From assembly GCF_003334765.1 (NCBI RefSeq), contig NZ_QOWT01000047.1: DNA of 21,426 bases. One strand, given 5' to 3'. The translations under genes and the position numbers were made by a program. The stretch's first letter is position 1. The number at the start of each line of letters is the position of its first letter. The notes below the pieces were generated by a model. That model was not told where the DNA came from, searched no databases, and saw only the letters and a list, made by a program, of their open reading frames with translations. Below, piece by piece: positions 4,679 through 17,077 of the stretch. The DNA comes from Escherichia coli (GTDB lineage: Bacteria; Pseudomonadota; Gammaproteobacteria; Enterobacterales; Enterobacteriaceae).

Positions 4679-7600
4679 ATGAACAGGACCAGTCCCTATT
4701 ATTGTCGCCGCTCAGTACTTTCCTTATTGATATCTGCCTTGATATATGCCCCGCCCGGGATGGCTGCCTTCACTACTAATGTTATTGGTGTGGTAAACGA
4801 TGAGACTGTAGATGGCAACCAAAAAGTGAATGAACGAGGTACAACAAATAACACTCATATTATCAACCATGGCCAGCAGAATGTTCATGGCGGGGTATCT
4901 AATGGAAGTCTTATTGAATCTGGTGGATATCAAGATATAGGAAGTCATAACAATTTTGTGGGGCAGGCTAATAATACAACCATTAACGGTGGCAGACAGT
5001 CAATTCATGACGGGGGTATTTCCACAGGTACGACAATCGAGAGTGGCAATCAGGACGTTTATAAAGGGGGTATCAGCAATGGAACGACAATTAAGGGCGG
5101 TGCTTCACGCGTAGAGGGAGGGAGTGCGAATGGAATACTCATTGATGGTGGTAGCCAGATAGTAAAAGTTCAAGGGCATGCTGATGGTACAACGATAAAT
5201 AAGTCTGGCTCTCAGGACGTAGTACAAGGAAGTCTGGCAACGAACACAACCATAAATGGTGGTCGACAGTATGTTGAACAGAGCACAGTAGAAACAACAA
5301 CCATTAAAAATGGCGGTGAGCAAAGAGTATATGAGAGCCGTGCGCTGGACACGACGATTGAAGGCGGAACTCAGTCTCTGAATAGTAAGTCAACGGCAAA
5401 AAATACGCATATCTATTCTGGTGGCACGCAAATTGTTGATAACACCAGCACCTCGGATGTTATTGAAGTTTATTCTGGTGGCGTGCTTGATGTTAGTGGT
5501 GGTACGGCAACAAATGTTACCCAGCACGATGGTGCAATTTTAAAAACTAACACTAACGGTACGACGGTGAGCGGTACGAATAGTGAAGGTGCATTCTCCA
5601 TCCACAATCACGTGGCAGACAATGTGTTGCTGGAAAACGGTGGTCATTTAGACATAAACGCATATGGTTCGGCAAACAAGACGATTATTAAAGATAAAGG
5701 AACAATGTCAGTTTTAACCAATGCTAAAGCTGATGCGACCCGAATAGATAATGGCGGGGTTATGGATGTTGCAGGAAACGCGACAAATACCATAATTAAT
5801 GGTGGCACACAGAATATTAATAATTATGGCATAGCCACAGGCACCAATATCAACAGCGGAACGCAAAATATCAAAAGCGGCGGGAAAGCTGACACAACAA
5901 TTATATCCTCCGGGAGCCGGCAGGTTGTTGAGAAAGATGGTACGGCAATTGGCAGCAATATTAGCGCCGGAGGCTCGCTGATTGTCTATACCGGCGGTAT
6001 TGCACATGGGGTTAACCAGGAGACGGGCAGTGCTTTAGTTGCCAACACGGGTGCAGGGACTGATATCGAAGGATACAACAAGCTCTCTCACTTCACTATT
6101 ACCGGAGGGGAGGCTAATTATGTTGTGCTGGAAAATACCGGCGAACTGACGGTAGTGGCTAAAACCTCGGCGAAAAATACTACCATTGATACTGGCGGTA
6201 AGCTGATTGTCCAGAAGGAGGCTAAAACAGATAGCACCAGACTTAATAATGGCGGCGTTCTGGAGGTTCAGGACGGTGGTGAGGCTAAGCATGTTGAGCA
6301 ACAATCCGGCGGCGCATTAATTGCTTCCACGACCTCCGGAACACTTATCGAAGGAACCAACAGTTATGGTGATGCTTTCTACATCAGGAATTCAGAAGCT
6401 AAAAATGTAGTGCTGGAAAACGCTGGCTCATTAACAGTCGTCACTGGTTCCCGCGCAGTTGACACGATTATTAATGCCAACGGCAAAATGGATGTTTATG
6501 GAAAAGATGTTGGCACTGTACTCAATAGTGCTGGCACCCAAACAATATATGCCAGTGCCACTTCTGATAAAGCAAATATCAAAGGTGGCAAGCAAACGGT
6601 ATATGGTTTAGCCACTGAAGCAAATATCGAAAGTGGTGAACAAATTGTTGATGGTGGGTCAACAGAGAAAACACACATCAATGGTGGCACGCAAACCGTT
6701 CAGAATTATGGTAAGGCAATCAATACCGATATCGTCTCTGGCCTACAACAAATTATGGCAAACGGGACAGCGGAAGGTTCCATTATTAATGGGGGTTCAC
6801 AGGTAGTTAATGAGGGCGGTCTGGCTGAAAACTCGGTGCTTAATGACGGCGGCACACTCGATGTGCGGGAGAAAGGCAGCGCAACGGGGATACAGCAGAG
6901 TAGCCAGGGCGCTTTGGTTGCAACCACCAGGGCGACGCGGGTCACAGGAACACGCGCGGATGGCGTCGCGTTCAGCATCGAGCAGGGTGCGGCGAACAAT
7001 ATCCTGCTGGCAAATGGCGGCGTGTTAACCGTGGAGTCAGACACCTCTTCTGACAAAACACAGGTCAATATGGGCGGACGGGAGATCGTCAAAACAAAAG
7101 CCACTGCGACAGGCACGACGCTCACCGGCGGTGAACAAATTGTCGAGGGTGTGGCGAATGAGACAACAATTAACGACGGCGGAATACAAACAGTTTCAGC
7201 TAACGGAGAGGCAATAAAAACAAAGATCAATGAAGGCGGTACGCTGACAGTCAACGATAATGGCAAAGCGACAGATATCGTCCAGAACAGCGGTGCCGCT
7301 CTCCAGACGAGCACGGCTAACGGTATTGAAATCAGCGGTACTCACCAGTACGGTACTTTTTCCATTTCCGGCAATTTAGCGACCAATATGTTGCTGGAAA
7401 ATGGCGGTAATTTATTGGTATTAGCAGGTACCGAAGCTCGCGACTCCACGGTTGGCAAGGGTGGGGCAATGCAAAACCTGGGTCAGGACTCCGCCACAAA
7501 GGTTAACTCTGGCGGGCAATATACCCTTGGGCGGTCAAAAGATGAGTTTCAGGCTCTGGCCCGGGCAGAAGATCTCCAGGTCGCTGGCGGTACGGCAATC

Positions 7601-9707: not shown

Positions 9708-10553
9708 TTGAACAATTGGTCACCAGAGCATACAAAAGTCATCAAGAGCTGGTTTAAGATTGATACATATCGCAAATTTGAAGACCTCTCATTGATTCAG
9801 TTCTACCATGAGATATGGGCCCGTAAATTGTTCTTTAAGGAGTATCGGGAAGAGTTTGAGAGCAGAGCACTTGCGGGTTACTTCTCAAAAATTTTTAGTG
9901 GCAATCCTTTTTTAATTGAAGAAGGACAACTGGGATACATGACTCCTGCCAACAAACTTTTTCAACCTCCCCATTTCTTTCTCACAACTCTTGATCGCCT
10001 TGCTGAAACGAGCATTATTGCAATGCAACGTGGAGGTTTTCTTTGGCATGAAGGTGATAATTATTCTATAAACGCAGAGCTTCGAGAAGAATCACTTTCA
10101 GACATTATGCCAGATCAGTTTACACGAACGATCATGTTCGAGATTGATCTGGCAAGTGGCACAGACGAAGAGATTGCAGAGTCGCTTAAAGCTGCATTAC
10201 CGCAGTGGCGTAAAGTTAAGGGTATTGATGAAAACCCATTGGAATCTGTTCGTTTTGGATACGGAACTATCAAGAAACTCATCAGTTATCGTGTAATACC
10301 TATGCTTGATATCCTGGTGTGGGCAGCCGTTAAAAAAATCCGTGTCTCTGACGACAGGTTATCCAGACTACTATATACAGACGATGACGAAGAAAGCGAA
10401 ATGAGACAGTCCAGCCAAATCAAAGATACCGACAGGCCTTTGGCTCTTAAATCCTGCACAACTGACTTTATCCGACAATTCCATTACTTCATGAACAAAA
10501 ACAGCCATTTAAAGCAAATGAAAGTCTCTGATGTAATGAAACTATCGGATTAA
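9708..10553 (+). CDS. hypothetical protein, 281 aa, no recognisable motif
   Basis: The ORF is 846 nt and has no competing frame. It has a TTG start with GGAGA at 9696-9700, 7 nt upstream. A terminator follows it and an AlpA-family gene comes next. I cannot assign a function from the sequence. Confidence 0.6.
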   Translation: MNNWSPEHTKVIKSWFKIDTYRKFEDLSLIQFYHEIWARKLFFKEYREEFESRALAGYFSKIFSGNPFLIEEGQLGYMTPANKLFQPPHFFLTTLDRLAETSIIAMQRGGFLWHEGDNYSINAELREESLSDIMPDQFTRTIMFEIDLASGTDEEIAESLKAALPQWRKVKGIDENPLESVRFGYGTIKKLISYRVIPMLDILVWAAVKKIRVSDDRLSRLLYTDDDEESEMRQSSQIKDTDRPLALKSCTTDFIRQFHYFMNKNSHLKQMKVSDVMKLSD

Positions 10554-12991: not shown

Positions 12992-13020
12992 AATGGCTCC
13001 TTTTTTATTGTTGTGATTAC

Positions 13021-13049
13021 AGATATGGCATATTTAATTTATTTGTCAA
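13021..13049 (-). promoter_or_regulatory. candidate sigma70 promoter for the RepL-like gene
   Basis: On the minus strand the sequence is TTGACA (13049-13044), a 17-nt spacer, then ATATCT (13026-13021). This lies about 30 nt upstream of the ATG at 12991. The -35 is a perfect match and the -10 is weak. Confidence 0.35.
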
Positions 13050-13444
13050 TGGTTTTGATGATATTATTTTAATTATATCTTATTTGAATTTTTTATCCGT
13101 TCTTTGGTGGTGGTAATAGGTTGTAAAATTTGAAACGAGGGGTGCTAAATTTAACCATCACCTGTTATGTGATTGATAATTTTTGGTGCTGAAATTAACA
13201 ACGGCATATTTTGTATAATCATATGATTTTATTAGATAATTTTTGATTTTGATCTGCAAGATAAAAGAGTGATAAAGAAATAAGAAACCACAGTTTTGCA
13301 TTTGATCGATACTCAAGGCCTTGGTGTACCTGATGAAAACATTTTTATTATTGCTTTTCTTAAATAATATCATTTGTAAATTGAAGCCTGCGCAACTGTG
13401 TGTTACGCCCCATTGGGCTTCAGAACATCACTATAGTGTTTTCA

Positions 13445-13580
13445 GTCAGTATAAATACGCTTCGCGCACGAGTTCACAGTATTTAGGTTTACTGTCATTA
13501 AAAATACGCTTCGTGCAGAAGTTCAGAAAAATGGGGTTAGCTGTCAGCACAAATACGCTTCGCGCAAAAAAAAATCAGGA
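13445..13580. repeat. three direct iterons with a 49-bp period (candidate replication origin)
   Basis: The 16-nt core AAATACGCTTCG[C/T]GCA occurs at 13453-13468, 13502-13517 and 13551-13566, so the spacing is exactly 49 bp. Flanking positions are also shared (GTCA upstream, rAGTTCA downstream). The array sits between a very AT-rich tract (13000-13400) and a GC-rich patch, about 450 bp upstream of the RepL-like gene. Confidence 0.7.
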
Positions 13581-14030
13581 GGCTAAGTTGATCGAGAAAG
13601 CGAACACAGATACATGATTTACCCGTTTGCTGACTACGGCTCACGCCGGGACCCTTCGGAAAAACCCTTTCTGCTTCAGCGAGTGAGTGCTGCGGGCACT
13701 CAGAGGCGCTGCCAGGGAGACAAAATTAAGTTTTTCAACTGTTTGGTAAAAATAATTAACATTTATAGGTAGTCGGGGCGTAAGCCAGTGCGTAGCACGC
13801 TCTCAAAAAATATTCCTGTGGGTTTCTTATCTGCAATAGGGAAATAACTCAGATAATTGATATATGAAAAAACAATACAATCGGGAAGACACAACTTTAG
13901 CACAGTAAAAGCTATTTGTATTTATGAGGAATAAAATATATATGAATAATAAAATATTTTTATTTTGCTATTGATTTTAATTTTTAAGATGATAGTACTT
14001 AATTATAAAAACAAAATAATGGAGGAAATT

Positions 14031-14456
14031 ATGAGTGCTATTAATGTGTTATCTCAGGAGGAAAAATTTATACATGTTGTTGATAAATTTATAACCCATA
14101 ATCACAACGGCGTTAATAACAATGTCTTTTATAAAAAACTTTATGTTCTCTTCGCCGGATATCATCTGAAGTATTTTTATTCACGGGCGCAATATCGCAA
14201 TTCGTGTTATCACGTTGATAATATCATGCAGATGTTTATGGGTGTCGTTTCTACCCTGAAGACCCCTCTGCTCAGGCAACTCGCAAACAGTGACACATTG
14301 CTGCATTGCCTGAATTCGCTCGTGAATTATATTTCAGGCAATCTGGATGAAGCAGAGCACATTTATGCTGATTTACTGGCACAGTATGAAAAGAAACGCA
14401 TTGCACGTTCTCTGGCTTATACACCACCAGGATCCGTGGTCAGGAAAAGACTGTGA
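14031..14456 (+). CDS. hypothetical protein, 141 aa, C-terminus ..PPGSVVRKRL
   Basis: ATG 14031 has GGAGG (14021-14025) 5 nt upstream, while the ORF-track start at 13965 has no SD. No motif is recognisable. The C-terminal tail resembles that of the ankyrin protein. Confidence 0.6.
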   Translation: MSAINVLSQEEKFIHVVDKFITHNHNGVNNNVFYKKLYVLFAGYHLKYFYSRAQYRNSCYHVDNIMQMFMGVVSTLKTPLLRQLANSDTLLHCLNSLVNYISGNLDEAEHIYADLLAQYEKKRIARSLAYTPPGSVVRKRL

Positions 14457-14544
14457 GACATCGGAAATGCGCCGGACAAGGCAGAGTATGGCAGAGTGAC
14501 ATAAAAGCAGTCGTTTCCCGCAAGATATTACCGGGCATTAAAAA

Positions 14545-14573
14545 GGCAGGATCCACCGATTTGGTGTCCTGCC
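14545..14573 (-). terminator. strong hairpin terminator between convergent genes (best U-tract for the minus-strand lipoprotein operon)
   Basis: The hairpin is GGCAGGA..CACC-gattt-GGTG-TCCTGCC: 7 bp, a 2-nt bulge, then 4 bp. On the plus strand it is preceded by AAAAA, which gives a U5 tract after the hairpin on the minus-strand transcript. Confidence 0.6.
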
Positions 14574-14597
14574 TGGCGGGATTATTTTATTGTGGTC

Positions 14598-14918
14598 TTA
14601 CTTATCAACGACCTGCCAGCCATCATCTGTTTTGACCAGCTTGACAGCCGCTGTGCGTTTTTCGTTATCGACAACAGCTGTTACATTGCATTTATAGCTT
14701 TTATCCGATAGTTTTTCGCAGTCGTGTTTTTTGACTGATTTTAACTTCCGCAGCATGTCAGGCGTGATATCGTTTCTCGCTATGGATTTAACGATGGCAT
14801 TCGTCTGCTCCACGACCTTATTCATCGCAGTGTAAATATCCTGCTCAGACGGTTCACTGGTGCAGCCGGTCAGCAAAAAAATGGACGCAATGAGTGTGGT
14901 AAATGCATATGTTTTCAT
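14598..14918 (-). CDS. small lipoprotein, 106 aa
   Basis: MKTYAFTTLIASIFLLTGC is a signal peptide with lipobox L-T-G-C. The mature part ends ..AAVKLVKTDDGWQVVDK, typical of small periplasmic or lipoprotein beta-sheet domains. The function is unknown. Confidence 0.8.
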   Translation of the reverse strand: MKTYAFTTLIASIFLLTGCTSEPSEQDIYTAMNKVVEQTNAIVKSIARNDITPDMLRKLKSVKKHDCEKLSDKSYKCNVTAVVDNEKRTAAVKLVKTDDGWQVVDK

Positions 14919-14944
14919 AAAATAATCCCAGACGGTAGAGTACG

Positions 14945-15343
14945 TTATTGAAAAAGGCCGGTTTTCATCTTGCTGTTGTTTTCAGAGAACGTCCACTTGC
15001 TGACGGTTTCGCCTTTAAATTCGATTTCCAGCGTTTTGGCCTGCGTCTGTGAACCCCCGGTCAGCAGTCCAATCACGGGAATGAATGTGGTGGCATCAAA
15101 CTGATTGTTGTCCATCGAATAAGTCCATTGTTCATTGCCACTATCAAGTGTAGTTTTGGTTTCGGGCTGACCGAATGCGGTAATGATTTCTGATTTCGTT
15201 GTTTTATTTTTGATGATTTTCGACTGCAGACTTTGTGATGTTTCTTTTTTTAGATGCTGGTTGCCTGATGTTGAACAGCCAGAAATAAGTAAAGAAGAAA
15301 TAAAAAACACAGAAATCATGAATCTGTTCATAAGTTTTCTCAT
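14945..15343 (-). CDS. lipoprotein, 132 aa (weak BamE/SmpA-OmlA-like pattern)
   Basis: MRKLMNRFMISVFFISSLLISGC is a signal peptide with lipobox I-S-G-C. ..KSEIITAFGQPETKTTLDSGNEQWTYS.. resembles the 'v...lG.P......g...W.Y' pattern of OmlA-type domains. That similarity is weak. Confidence 0.8.
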   Translation of the reverse strand: MRKLMNRFMISVFFISSLLISGCSTSGNQHLKKETSQSLQSKIIKNKTTKSEIITAFGQPETKTTLDSGNEQWTYSMDNNQFDATTFIPVIGLLTGGSQTQAKTLEIEFKGETVSKWTFSENNSKMKTGLFQ

Positions 15344-15380
15344 ATTAATTTTTTATGTTTGCGGTGGTGTGAAATTAATA

Positions 15381-15656
15381 TCATCTTATAAAAACAACTC
15401 TGTCTGCATATTTCTTTTTAATAATGCAGATAAGAATAATGACGCTGGCAAAAAACGTAATGACTGAGGCAGGAGTGCTGCCGGTCAATGAAAACACTAA
15501 CCAGGCGAGAGCTAATGCCACGAATTGAAACAGGAATGCCACACTGAGTGGACTTTCACCATAGGCCACTTTTGCATGGCAACCTTTGCAAACCCGCACA
15601 CCGTGTGGGCTTTGTGTAAAGCAGAAAGGGCAGCTAATCGTTTTATTATCCATCAT
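15381..15656 (-). CDS. zinc-ribbon membrane protein, 91 aa (N-terminal 4-Cys ribbon plus two predicted TM helices)
   Basis: The four Cys are CPFC-x12-CKGC. Two hydrophobic stretches follow: LSVAFLFQFVALALAWLVFSL and ASVITFFASVIILICII. It is the first gene of a three-gene minus-strand cluster with the two lipoproteins. Confidence 0.7.
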   Translation of the reverse strand: MMDNKTISCPFCFTQSPHGVRVCKGCHAKVAYGESPLSVAFLFQFVALALAWLVFSLTGSTPASVITFFASVIILICIIKKKYADRVVFIR

Positions 15657-15841
15657 GACTCCGTAGCCTGATTTAAGGTGATGTATTTTTGAACATTTTC
15701 GATGAATGAACTGCTTTAGTAAAATTGCTTGTACCGATCGATGGATCTCAGGCGATAGGTTATATCTATTATAACTAGATTATCGATATATAAAAACGAT
15801 CGATATCTTATTGACTATCACTAAAGTATGGACTAGCTAAC

Positions 15842-17077
15842 TTATGGTGCAGGATGGTTGTTGTTTTTAAATGATTGTTCTTTATTGGTATTTGTTGTCA
15901 TGGGATGACAGGGTGTCAGAATATGTAGGTGGAGGATTTGGTGGAAAGGATGTGCAGTGGCATGTAACAGAGACATGCCTCTGCGCCTGAGAAGTGCCAC
16001 AATATGGACGAGCAATACAAGCCATGAATACAGACGACGCTGGCGGGGTATCTGACGAGCTGTATTGTGCAGATTGCTCCTGAGCTGGATGATACCCACT
16101 GTCTCCTGTTGTCTTTCCAGACGAATTTTTTCTTCAAGCTGATGGATTTTCTCCAGAATCGTTTCCCGGTTTGCAGCCTGCTCTTCAGACTCGCATGATG
16201 GCACTGGCACTGGCACTGGCACTGGCACTGGCACTGGCACTGGCGCGGTTGTAGGTTCTATTGGCCTCTGGGCTTCTTTCAGTAAACTCAGATGCTCAGG
16301 CGTAAAATCAATCAGTGCTTGCAGGGAAGACCAGCCATATTTTTTACCCAACTGAGATGCTTTAAAGGCAATACCCTGGTATTGAAATGAAAATCCACTC
16401 ATTTTACCCGTAGTGGCGATATTGGGTTTGCAGGTCACTCCTTCCTGTTCCAGTAAGCGAACAAAGGTTAGTAAATCGGGATGGTGTGTTAATGCATTGT
16501 CGAGCAGGGCCTGCAACAGTGACTTAGGGCAGGGAGCTGCTGTGCGTTCTGCCATCATCAGTTCATTACGGGAAGGCTTCCTTTTATCCTGGCGGCTACT
16601 GCCGGTTACACCCGTAGTTTCGGTGAGGCCGTGTACTCTCTCCAGCTCACTGATAATCCGTGTGCCGATAAGATTTTCATTTTTCCCCAGGTACAGTTTT
16701 CCACCGACCATGTTAATACGACTTGCAATGATATGAATATGCTGCCCATCCGGATCATCGTGCATGATATAGCAGCGAAGATGGGTGTCAGTGAAGCCCA
16801 TTCGGGCCATATAATCGTCAGCGAATGCTGCCCACTGTCTGTTTGACAGTTTCTCACCCTTTGGCAGGCGAAGTGAATTATGCCAGACAGGTTTGGCGAC
16901 ATCGGGACGCAGCAGTCGGGTGCCTTCAAATTCACTTATAAGCTCAGCAGCAGTGCTACCCGTCATGTTGCCACCGATGACATAAGGCGTGATTTTGTGG
17001 TGAGAACCTGACTTCAGGCTATAAATAACCACACCTGTGAATTGTTTACCCCTTTTTATTTTCTGCATGCCTTTCAT
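15842..17077 (-). CDS. MOBP-type relaxase (MobA/VirD2/TraI-RP4 family, relaxase/mobilisation nuclease domain), 411 aa
   Basis: There is an N-terminal candidate catalytic Tyr (..GVVIYSLK..). The motif HDDPDGQHIHI has exactly the HxDxDxxHxH spacing of RP4 TraI (HTDTDNLHIHI) and VirD2. The start overlaps the MobC stop (ATGA). The C-terminal half contains a (PV)7 linker and a hydrophobic segment. Confidence 0.9.
   Translation of the reverse strand: MKGMQKIKRGKQFTGVVIYSLKSGSHHKITPYVIGGNMTGSTAAELISEFEGTRLLRPDVAKPVWHNSLRLPKGEKLSNRQWAAFADDYMARMGFTDTHLRCYIMHDDPDGQHIHIIASRINMVGGKLYLGKNENLIGTRIISELERVHGLTETTGVTGSSRQDKRKPSRNELMMAERTAAPCPKSLLQALLDNALTHHPDLLTFVRLLEQEGVTCKPNIATTGKMSGFSFQYQGIAFKASQLGKKYGWSSLQALIDFTPEHLSLLKEAQRPIEPTTAPVPVPVPVPVPVPVPSCESEEQAANRETILEKIHQLEEKIRLERQQETVGIIQLRSNLHNTARQIPRQRRLYSWLVLLVHIVALLRRRGMSLLHATAHPFHQILHLHILTPCHPMTTNTNKEQSFKNNNHPAP
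16201..16242. repeat. perfect hexanucleotide tandem repeat (GCACTG)x7 inside the relaxase gene, encoding (PV)7
   Basis: Seven perfect units were read directly at 16201-16242. On the coding strand they are CCA GTG codons, giving PVPVPVPVPVPVPV. Confidence 0.95.

Follow-up and report, generated by a model that had tools for sequence, protein, structure and literature searches.

A conserved, modular cassette of envelope-protein genes beside the relaxase gene of chromosomal mobilizable islands in enterobacteria, and its possible role as a barrier to incoming DNA

The stretch of DNA analysed here (the window; 21,426 nt of Escherichia coli assembly GCF_003334765.1, contig NZ_QOWT01000047.1) contains three small genes downstream of a relaxase gene, encoding a zinc-ribbon protein with two transmembrane (TM) segments (ZnR-2TM) and two lipoproteins (lipoA and lipoB). 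Together they form a previously undescribed cassette, which is a conserved, modular accessory unit of widespread mobilizable islands. The window is part of an E. coli chromosomal island located between tRNA-Ile/ypjA and ssrA, a site at which strain K-12 has CP4-57; an earlier note on this DNA had assigned the genes to a mobile element, and this is borne out. The cassette is tentatively regarded, in the most likely of the readings considered but one that is possible rather than probable, as an accessory envelope unit of ROD21/EARL-like chromosomal integrative mobilizable elements without a type IV secretion system (T4SS) of their own, serving as a barrier against incoming DNA. The features of the cassette are as follows.

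15656..15381, minus strand: ZnR-2TM gene, an open reading frame (ORF) of 91 aa with a predicted zinc ribbon, two TM segments and a basic tail.
15343..14945, minus strand: lipoA, an ORF of 132 aa; lipoprotein of the SEN1984 family.
14918..14598, minus strand: lipoB, 106 aa; RefSeq WP_000860556.
14539..14574, minus strand: intrinsic terminator, closing the cassette 3' of lipoB.

All three ORFs were confirmed at these coordinates, transcribed in the same direction as the relaxase gene upstream, and RefSeq annotates the same three coding sequences in identical E. coli chromosomes. The terminator hairpin (14574..14544, followed by a U-tract, UUUUU) folds at -18.9 kcal/mol (z=-3.7), and none of 200 shuffled sequences folds equally well. 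Coordinates, strands and hairpin thus agree with the earlier account of three co-directional small genes between a relaxase gene and a strong terminator, and a four-cysteine, predicted zinc-ribbon protein with two TM helices accompanied by two lipoproteins is indeed what they encode. Gaps of 37 nt (ZnR-2TM to lipoA) and 26 nt (lipoA to lipoB) separate the genes in the window, and across loci the gaps within the cassette are mostly 17–37 nt. The position described as next to the relaxase gene is correct in that the cassette lies co-directionally downstream, but a conserved spacer intervenes, which measures 185–188 nt from the relaxase stop codon to ZnR-2TM in the window and 167–251 nt across loci (492 nt in locus L030). 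Pairwise ratios of non-synonymous to synonymous substitution rates (dN/dS) are 0.05–0.12 for ZnR-2TM, 0.17–0.34 for lipoA and 0.14–0.49 for lipoB. Homologue clusters were obtained for each gene (ZnR-2TM 53, lipoA 350, lipoB 112), all from Enterobacterales among the matches listed. These clusters, the dN/dS values and synteny in 27 loci show that the genes are more than chance ORFs; all three are real and under purifying selection.

The 27 loci were returned by a scan of one genome per species, queried with the lipoA alignment, and come from Citrobacter, Enterobacter, Lelliottia, Kluyvera, Atlantibacter, Pseudocitrobacter, Superficieibacter, Leclercia, Phytobacter, Rosenbergiella, Erwinia and Photorhabdus. 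In every scanned locus with sufficient flanking sequence the order is orf135, relaxase, spacer, ZnR-2TM, lipoA, lipoB; next comes a convergent gene, orf163, except in L028, in which tblastn did not detect it. This order holds at identities to the window as low as 42–53 % for ZnR-2TM, 40–45 % for lipoB and 51 % for the relaxase. The analysis of co-occurrence proposed in the earlier note thus found the three genes kept together, in the same order, in approximately 25 species. The slot after the relaxase gene is fixed in more than 35 loci from approximately 25 enterobacterial species. Similar DNA is present in 272 of 5426 complete E. coli genomes (~5 %), every copy being chromosomal. A plasmid match, OX345050.1, proved to be a 3.6 kb linear contig of the same island type.

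The genes are nevertheless separable, and the earlier treatment of the three as a single system does not hold. Locus L032 has ZnR-2TM and lipoB, 14 nt apart, without lipoA; L041 (E. coli D8) has ZnR-2TM alone; and in L049 (Pectobacterium versatile) lipoB alone directly follows the spacer. The gene orf163 is present in L032, L041 and L049, as it is in L040. The cassette is therefore modular and not an obligate trio. Its alleles are also mosaic: at a typing threshold of 70 % identity, ZnR-2TM types A, B and C, lipoB types A, B and C and relaxase types A and B occur in varied combinations. ZnR-2TM proteins that are 80–82 % identical are found with relaxases of 51 % identity, and those of 51–53 % identity with relaxases of 78–86 % identity. 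The synonymous substitution rate (dS) varies several-fold between adjacent genes (in L016, 0.13 for ZnR-2TM, 0.54 for lipoA and 0.86 for lipoB), which indicates recombination inside the cassette. Two genomes, Superficieibacter electus (L015 and L018) and Citrobacter meridianamericanus (L004 and L020), contain two copies, and the cassette alleles have diverged in both, ZnR-2TM being 56 % identical in one pair, and lipoA 75 % and lipoB 71 % identical in the other. Such divergence of co-resident alleles is weakly suggestive of exclusion or incompatibility groups, with which it is compatible (n=2).

RefSeq places the start of ZnR-2TM at the second ATG (15653), which is the likely start and gives a protein of 90 aa (WP_000369203). 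Its sequence runs M-DNKTISCPFCFTQSPHGVRVCKGCHAKVAYGESPLS, then two hydrophobic stretches about seven residues apart (residues ~39–57 and ~65–79), then KKKYADRVVFIR. The four cysteines are arranged as two CxxC knuckles (CPFC and CKGC), and the C-terminal tail is basic. Both termini being basic, the positive-inside rule points to an N-in/C-in hairpin with a cytoplasmic zinc ribbon. ZnR-2TM is predicted to be an inner-membrane protein with its ribbon and its conserved, basic C-terminal motif on the cytoplasmic side. The match to the Pfam family DZR (PF12773) scores 17.4 bits against a cut-off of 27.3. A profile search of 1.84 billion representatives returned 113 proteins at E<=1e-3, mostly of 90–105 aa and with the same architecture. 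Amongst 27 distant members of the family CPFC and CKGC are invariant or nearly so; residues C8, P9, C11, G18, C22, Y31, G32 and F88 are invariant, C25 varies only rarely, and the C terminus retains a [YF]xxRVxF motif. The TM segments are not conserved. This pattern places the conserved working end of the protein in the cytoplasm.

Relatives of ZnR-2TM occur in several settings. A 91 aa protein from the ROD21-like island of CFT073 is 39 % identical (E=1.5e-14); its gene lies 10 nt from that of a 176 aa lipoprotein, with a frameshifted SEN1984 homologue and a MobQ relaxase gene nearby. The 91 aa protein, the 176 aa lipoprotein and the SEN1984 homologue correspond to SEN1981A, SEN1982 and SEN1984 of ROD21, respectively (PMC3198454, PMC10655114). 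Other relatives are found on 3.9 kb plasmids limited to two small genes besides Rep and a MobA_MobL relaxase, and on 31–33 kb plasmids of Klebsiella and Citrobacter, which also encode type 4 pilins, DotA/TraY, H-NS, ankyrin proteins and orphan methylases. No full-length homologue was present in 50,697 phage records, and a literature search combining zinc ribbon with superinfection exclusion returned nothing.

Some holins and membrane effectors are likewise small, with an N-in/C-in hairpin of TM segments and a charged tail at the C terminus, and defence systems are located near the cassette in related islands. ZnR-2TM might on these grounds be a membrane toxin or abortive-infection effector, oligomerizing into a membrane lesion once its ribbon senses an invader, with the lipoproteins modulating or neutralizing it; abortive infection and a sensor–effector arrangement had both been raised in the earlier note. 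This explanation is very unlikely and, in the interpretation presented here, the least supported of the rivals. The TM segments are the least conserved part of the protein, only the ribbon and the C-terminal cytoplasmic motif being kept family-wide; ZnR-2TM can occur alone, without partners; and periplasmic lipoproteins cannot reach a cytoplasmic ribbon. In addition, PADLOC gives no match, purifying selection is strong and signs of an antitoxin are lacking. In the reading preferred here, the cassette is neither an abortive-infection system nor an obligate three-protein complex.

For lipoA, the RefSeq start at 15331 is likely to be correct and gives 128 aa (WP_001079017). The lipobox (LISGC) is followed by Ser at +2, from which sorting to the outer membrane is predicted. 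An identical protein (WP_001079017.1) is named 'SEN1984 family lipoprotein' in several RefSeq genomes, and lipoA shares 34 % identity with the frameshifted CFT073 SEN1984 homologue; lipoA had no match to a SEN1984-family model in the copy of NCBIfam searched. Its description as OmlA-like holds at the level of the fold, but not at that of family membership. The protein has the two-helix, three-strand BamE fold, is overall BamE/OmlA/OsmE/BLIP-like with an additional low-confidence loop (residues 86–98), and has a type VI secretion system (T6SS) immunity protein as its second-best structural match. The score against BamE/SmpA_OmlA (PF04355), 12.9 bits (E=0.097), falls below the gathering cut-off of 23.2 bits, and BLAST found no similarity between lipoA and E. 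coli K-12 BamE. It differs further from that family in being carried by mobile elements. A few lipoA homologues do carry PF04355.

In phages, lipoA is a moron. It matches phrog_3135 (E=5e-24), and homologues with 31–44 % identity are located directly 3' of cI, and co-directional with it, in phage PhiR26_1 of Escherichia and phage S107 of Salmonella; Salmonella phages S135 and S137 gave near-identical matches, and among the three Salmonella phages the gene context was read for S107 only. The slot downstream of cI, occupied in two lambdoid phage types, is expressed in the lysogen, as is the comparable position of rexAB in lambda, and other lipoA homologues occupy tail-region moron slots in Klebsiella phage elements. 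In this respect lipoA resembles phage exclusion and moron genes. It differs from Cor and Llp, to which it is not homologous, and ZnR-2TM and lipoB are absent from phages. Homologues of lipoA are also present in 133 plasmid records, 97 of them typed as conjugative and most from Burkholderia.

The second lipoprotein, lipoB, has a lipobox (LLTGC) followed by Thr at +2. Its alignment contains two invariant cysteines, C67 and C77, in the motif DCxKxSDKSYKCN; these probably form a periplasmic disulfide. In the AlphaFold model (pLDDT 83) a single helix packs on a four-stranded sheet, a fold that resembles cystatin, IseA and the colicin M immunity protein. An NTF2-like origin is in keeping with weak, sub-threshold Pfam matches to Lumazine_bd_2 and DUF4878, and on the model lipoB is predicted to be an NTF2/cystatin-like periplasmic lipoprotein. 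Residue +2 is Thr or Asn in most copies and Asp (CDS...) in divergent types, for example at 5294–5608 of L032. This predicts inner-membrane retention in the divergent types and outer-membrane sorting in the window, so membrane sorting of lipoB may differ between types. No lipoB homologues were found in the phage and plasmid collections, and the family seems confined to these islands; a fold search of BFVD with lipoB returned nothing significant. Identification of lipoB as Cor was rejected, since the match to phrog_1119 (E=1.4e-4) spans only residues 7–40, that is, the signal peptide and lipobox; a PHROG spanin match likewise involves the signal peptide only.

These properties of the lipoproteins bear on a second rival, in which the cassette is host-fitness or virulence cargo of the lysogenic-conversion type. 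Its envelope proteins would then alter outer-membrane or periplasmic physiology, for example in stress or serum resistance or in protection from bacteriocins or T6SS effectors, and have no role in DNA traffic. The resemblance of both lipoproteins to immunity proteins, that of lipoA to BamE, OsmE and BLIP and of lipoB to cystatin and IseA, and the occurrence of lipoA as a phage moron suit this explanation. Island relatives carry other cargo beside their mob genes, and a SEN1982 mutant of ROD21 is cited in PMC10655114 as being attenuated in mice. Ordinary cargo, however, varies from island to island, and the slot beside the relaxase gene is fixed across very different island backbones; moreover, lipoB is never found outside these elements. 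A cargo role is thus considered rather unlikely.

Further explanations turn on the DNA and genes that surround the cassette, which are listed below.

17077..15842, minus strand: relaxase gene; MobA/VirD2-type (PF03432, E=1.6e-22), with a Pro-Val repeat linker.
17074..17481, minus strand: orf135, 135 aa; overlaps the start of the relaxase gene.
15706..15825, minus strand: non-coding spacer element; candidate origin of transfer (oriT)/nic region, operator/promoter of the cassette, or both.
14031..14456, plus strand: orf163, 141 aa in RefSeq; convergent with the cassette, which it bounds.

The relaxase gene is the constant upstream neighbour of the cassette. Matches of its product to the NCBIfam models MobB, TraI_MobP and MbpB are all under their cut-offs. 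A Pro-Val dipeptide repeat (PVPVPV...) at residues ~283–297 is replaced by Pro-Ala in L032, and the length of the relaxase differs between otherwise near-identical copies (411 aa here, 423 aa in L002). The upstream gene orf135, present in every locus with sufficient flank, has no Pfam match; by position, its product is a candidate MobC-like relaxosome accessory. Pfam also gave no match for orf163, which may encode a regulator or Mob accessory. Terminator-like sites occur on both strands in the convergent gap between lipoB and orf163, the terminator of orf163 amongst them.

The spacer element surpasses the flanking genes in conservation among loci whose relaxases share just ~50 % identity: mean pairwise identity is 0.70–0.80 over 15706–15825, compared with 0.41–0.63 in the 3' coding DNA of the relaxase. 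A 30-mer, CATCGATCGGTACAAGCAATTTTACTAAAG (15743..15714, minus strand), is invariant, and an alignment of 12 divergent loci shows the invariant blocks TAGTCAA..GATCGTT..AGATCGATAAT in addition to it. GATCG/ATCGAT motifs, including Dam sites, are repeated in the element. Each of 37 loci with a relaxase of this type has a single copy of the 14-mer ATCGATCGGTACAA, even L049, from which the ZnR-2TM gene is missing; loci in which ZnR-2TM homologues adjoin other relaxases lack it. Since the element tracks the relaxase, it is a candidate oriT/nic region on the evidence of its sequence conservation. A -10-like TATAAT at 15773..15768 suggests that the spacer may also hold an operator or promoter. A terminator scan found no terminator-like site between the relaxase gene and ZnR-2TM; transcription of the cassette probably relies on a spacer promoter, on read-through out of the mob genes, or on the two together. 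Within the spacer there was no Rfam match and no covariation, and folding of the single-stranded DNA was not significant (z=-1.2 and -1.8). A full-text literature search for the invariant sequence gave irrelevant matches only. An alternative oriT upstream of the mobC-like orf135 was rejected, as that region is conserved within one relaxase type only; a short nic motif there is possible.

Another rival makes the cassette a donor-side accessory to mobilization. ZnR-2TM would provide a tether between the relaxosome or relaxase and either the inner membrane or a helper coupling protein, and the lipoproteins would adapt the helper mating channel. ZnR-2TM is the most constant neighbour of the relaxase, directly 3' of the putative oriT in all variants but one; relatives are present on the 3.9 kb plasmids with little beyond Rep and Mob; and conservation across the family is limited to its cytoplasmic parts. 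A precedent exists in MobB of R1162, which inserts into the membrane. MobB of R1162/RSF1010 is a small protein whose gene accompanies that of the relaxase, and relaxase transport depends on it, according to the reference to Parker and Meyer (2007) in PMC3912908. However, it has no homology to ZnR-2TM and no zinc ribbon, and ZnR-2TM types reassort independently of relaxase types. Further points against mobilization are that L049 has relaxase and spacer without ZnR-2TM, that the ZnR-2TM gene of ROD21/CFT073 is several genes from the relaxase gene and on the opposite strand, and that lipoA also occurs in phages. A role in mobilization is consequently judged rather unlikely.

Were oriT to lie in the spacer and the relaxase gene to be transferred last, the cassette would be the first DNA into a new host, where it might be expressed early and help the element to establish. 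The invariant, relaxase-tracking element immediately upstream fits such leading-region genes, as does the presence of ZnR-2TM homologues on the 31–33 kb plasmids among small ORFs and orphan methylases, a typical leading-region layout. Against this, both oriT and the polarity of transfer are only putative, and no significant single-stranded hairpin promoter was found in the spacer. To our knowledge, moreover, leading-region genes encode cytoplasmic anti-defence proteins and not lipoproteins. This explanation is highly improbable.

Comparison with ROD21 and the EARL islands is informative for the cassette as a whole. The window ZnR-2TM is homologous to the CFT073 counterpart of SEN1981A, and lipoA falls in the SEN1984 family; in both cases the ZnR-2TM gene abuts a lipoprotein gene on a mobilizable island without a T4SS, and a DUF6387 gene and a helix-turn-helix (HTH) gene lie at one island end. 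This last pair, in which the HTH gene is small, is located at 9708–10553 in the window and at 37727–38563 in L054, and the ROD21-like island of CFT073 has the same pair at 28 % identity; this suggests an excision module in common with EARL islands despite the different relaxase. There are also differences. ROD21 has a MobQ (MobA/MobL) relaxase and is integrated at tRNA-Asn, whereas the island in the window has a PF03432 MobA/VirD2 relaxase and is integrated at ssrA; window lipoB lacks detectable homology to SEN1982; and the genes are arranged differently, in both order and strand, with respect to the relaxase. The EARL family is defined by a P4-like integrase, a recombination directionality factor, a type IV pilin, TraD and a MobA/MobL relaxase, and of these the pilin, TraD and MobQ relaxase genes are absent from the window. 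A few EARL islands do carry a different relaxase (PMC6035254). Papers on ROD21 and EARL list the genes in question merely as 'membrane protein' and 'lipoprotein' (PMC3198454, PMC10655114), and the ROD21 transfer paper and the ICEKp258.2 paper make no mention of cassette genes.

The barrier proposed for the cassette would consist of parts acting independently in the element-carrying cell and blocking further incoming DNA. In the envelope, lipoA and lipoB might mask or block a component that an invading phage or T4SS requires, so that surface or superinfection exclusion results, and ZnR-2TM, at the cytoplasmic face of the inner membrane, might interfere with the translocated DNA–protein complex in the manner of entry exclusion. 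Small inner-membrane proteins and lipoproteins beside transfer genes are the usual form of exclusion factors, as in TraS/TraT of F, Eex of SXT/R391, TrbK of RP4, Sfx of IncC and MbeD of ColE1, and the exclusion groups of conjugative elements show allelic variation, as the cassette does. That integrative mobilizable elements can carry orphan exclusion lipoproteins is documented for Sfx, a surface-exclusion lipoprotein (PMC11493245), and the discussion in that paper includes ColE1 mbeD as an exclusion precedent. Properties of the cassette point the same way: lipoA sits in a position that prophages use for protective genes expressed in the lysogen; the folds of both lipoproteins are of a type common among periplasmic binders, inhibitors and immunity proteins; the alleles reassort like specificity groups, with the weak addition that those of the two-copy genomes differ; and the pairing of ZnR-2TM with a lipoprotein recurs in the CFT073 island with its unrelated MobQ relaxase. 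By analogy, then, an exclusion function is a reasonable, though tentative, reading.

Several points weigh against it. The resemblance to TraS/TraT and Eex drawn in the earlier note does not extend to homology in Pfam, NCBIfam, PADLOC and PHROG scans. For all three proteins, Pfam and NCBIfam yielded no TraT/TraS, MbeD, Eex or TrbK family at E<=1 and PADLOC-DB v2 yielded no family at all at E<=1; nothing in PADLOC, NCBIfam or Pfam rose above threshold, and a PDB sequence search with profiles found nothing. There is thus no sequence or profile match to a characterized exclusion, superinfection-exclusion or defence protein in these libraries, and we know of no exclusion protein with a cytoplasmic zinc ribbon. 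In a mobilizable element without a T4SS the cognate target of exclusion is not evident, and ZnR-2TM, having nearly no periplasmic exposure, cannot contact the lipoproteins. At least one distant member of the ZnR-2TM family has a non-mobile chromosomal context. Exclusion by mobilizable elements is barely documented (PMC11493245), and the ROD21 literature ties SEN1982 to virulence and not to DNA traffic (PMC10655114). A bolder form of the barrier proposal, which must be called speculative and quite unlikely, would make ZnR-2TM a new class of inner-membrane DNA-entry gatekeeper of mobilizable elements and small Mob plasmids, working on the cytoplasmic side of the membrane, where its ribbon would capture the incoming relaxase–DNA complex. 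The upstream element would be oriT, so that the cassette would enter first and exclusion be immediate, and the lipoproteins would be add-on outer barriers reassorting as exclusion groups.

Other features of the islands were observed. A gap of ~970 nt (12992–13964) between the HTH-like orf187 and orf163 is ORF-poor, and Rfam found nothing there. The window encodes one protein with ankyrin repeats and another with an NA-iREase2 domain (17683–18636 and 20776–21372). Between the ankyrin gene and orf135 is a hairpin (17580–17608, minus strand) with a 13 bp stem followed by a T-run, which is probably the terminator of the ankyrin gene; a comparable hairpin, different in sequence, is present in relatives that share the relaxase type. 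Related islands (L044–L048, L040, L049 and L041) carry defence-type cargo beside the mob module, including Kiwa KwaAB, a TIR protein, a type IIG restriction–modification system and DUF4209. The ypjK-yfjS-yfjT genes of K-12 CP4-57, encoding a small membrane protein, a lipoprotein and an exported protein, were considered as a counterpart of the cassette and rejected, as BLASTP found no similarity and the likeness is one of layout alone.

Islands of this kind are common in enterobacteria, occurring at the frequency given above in E. coli and also in Salmonella, Klebsiella, Citrobacter, Enterobacter, Pectobacterium and Photorhabdus. Defence and virulence genes travel with them as cargo, and their mobilization modules are poorly described. 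The present analysis defines a conserved cassette within them, ties it to the unstudied ROD21 genes SEN1981A and SEN1984 and proposes a likely oriT. Of the leads obtained, the ZnR-2TM family and this putative oriT lend themselves best to testing. If the cassette is not an exclusion system, it would be ordinary island cargo; if it is, it would add to a very short list of mobilizable elements that exert exclusion, and would do so through a type of protein new to that role.

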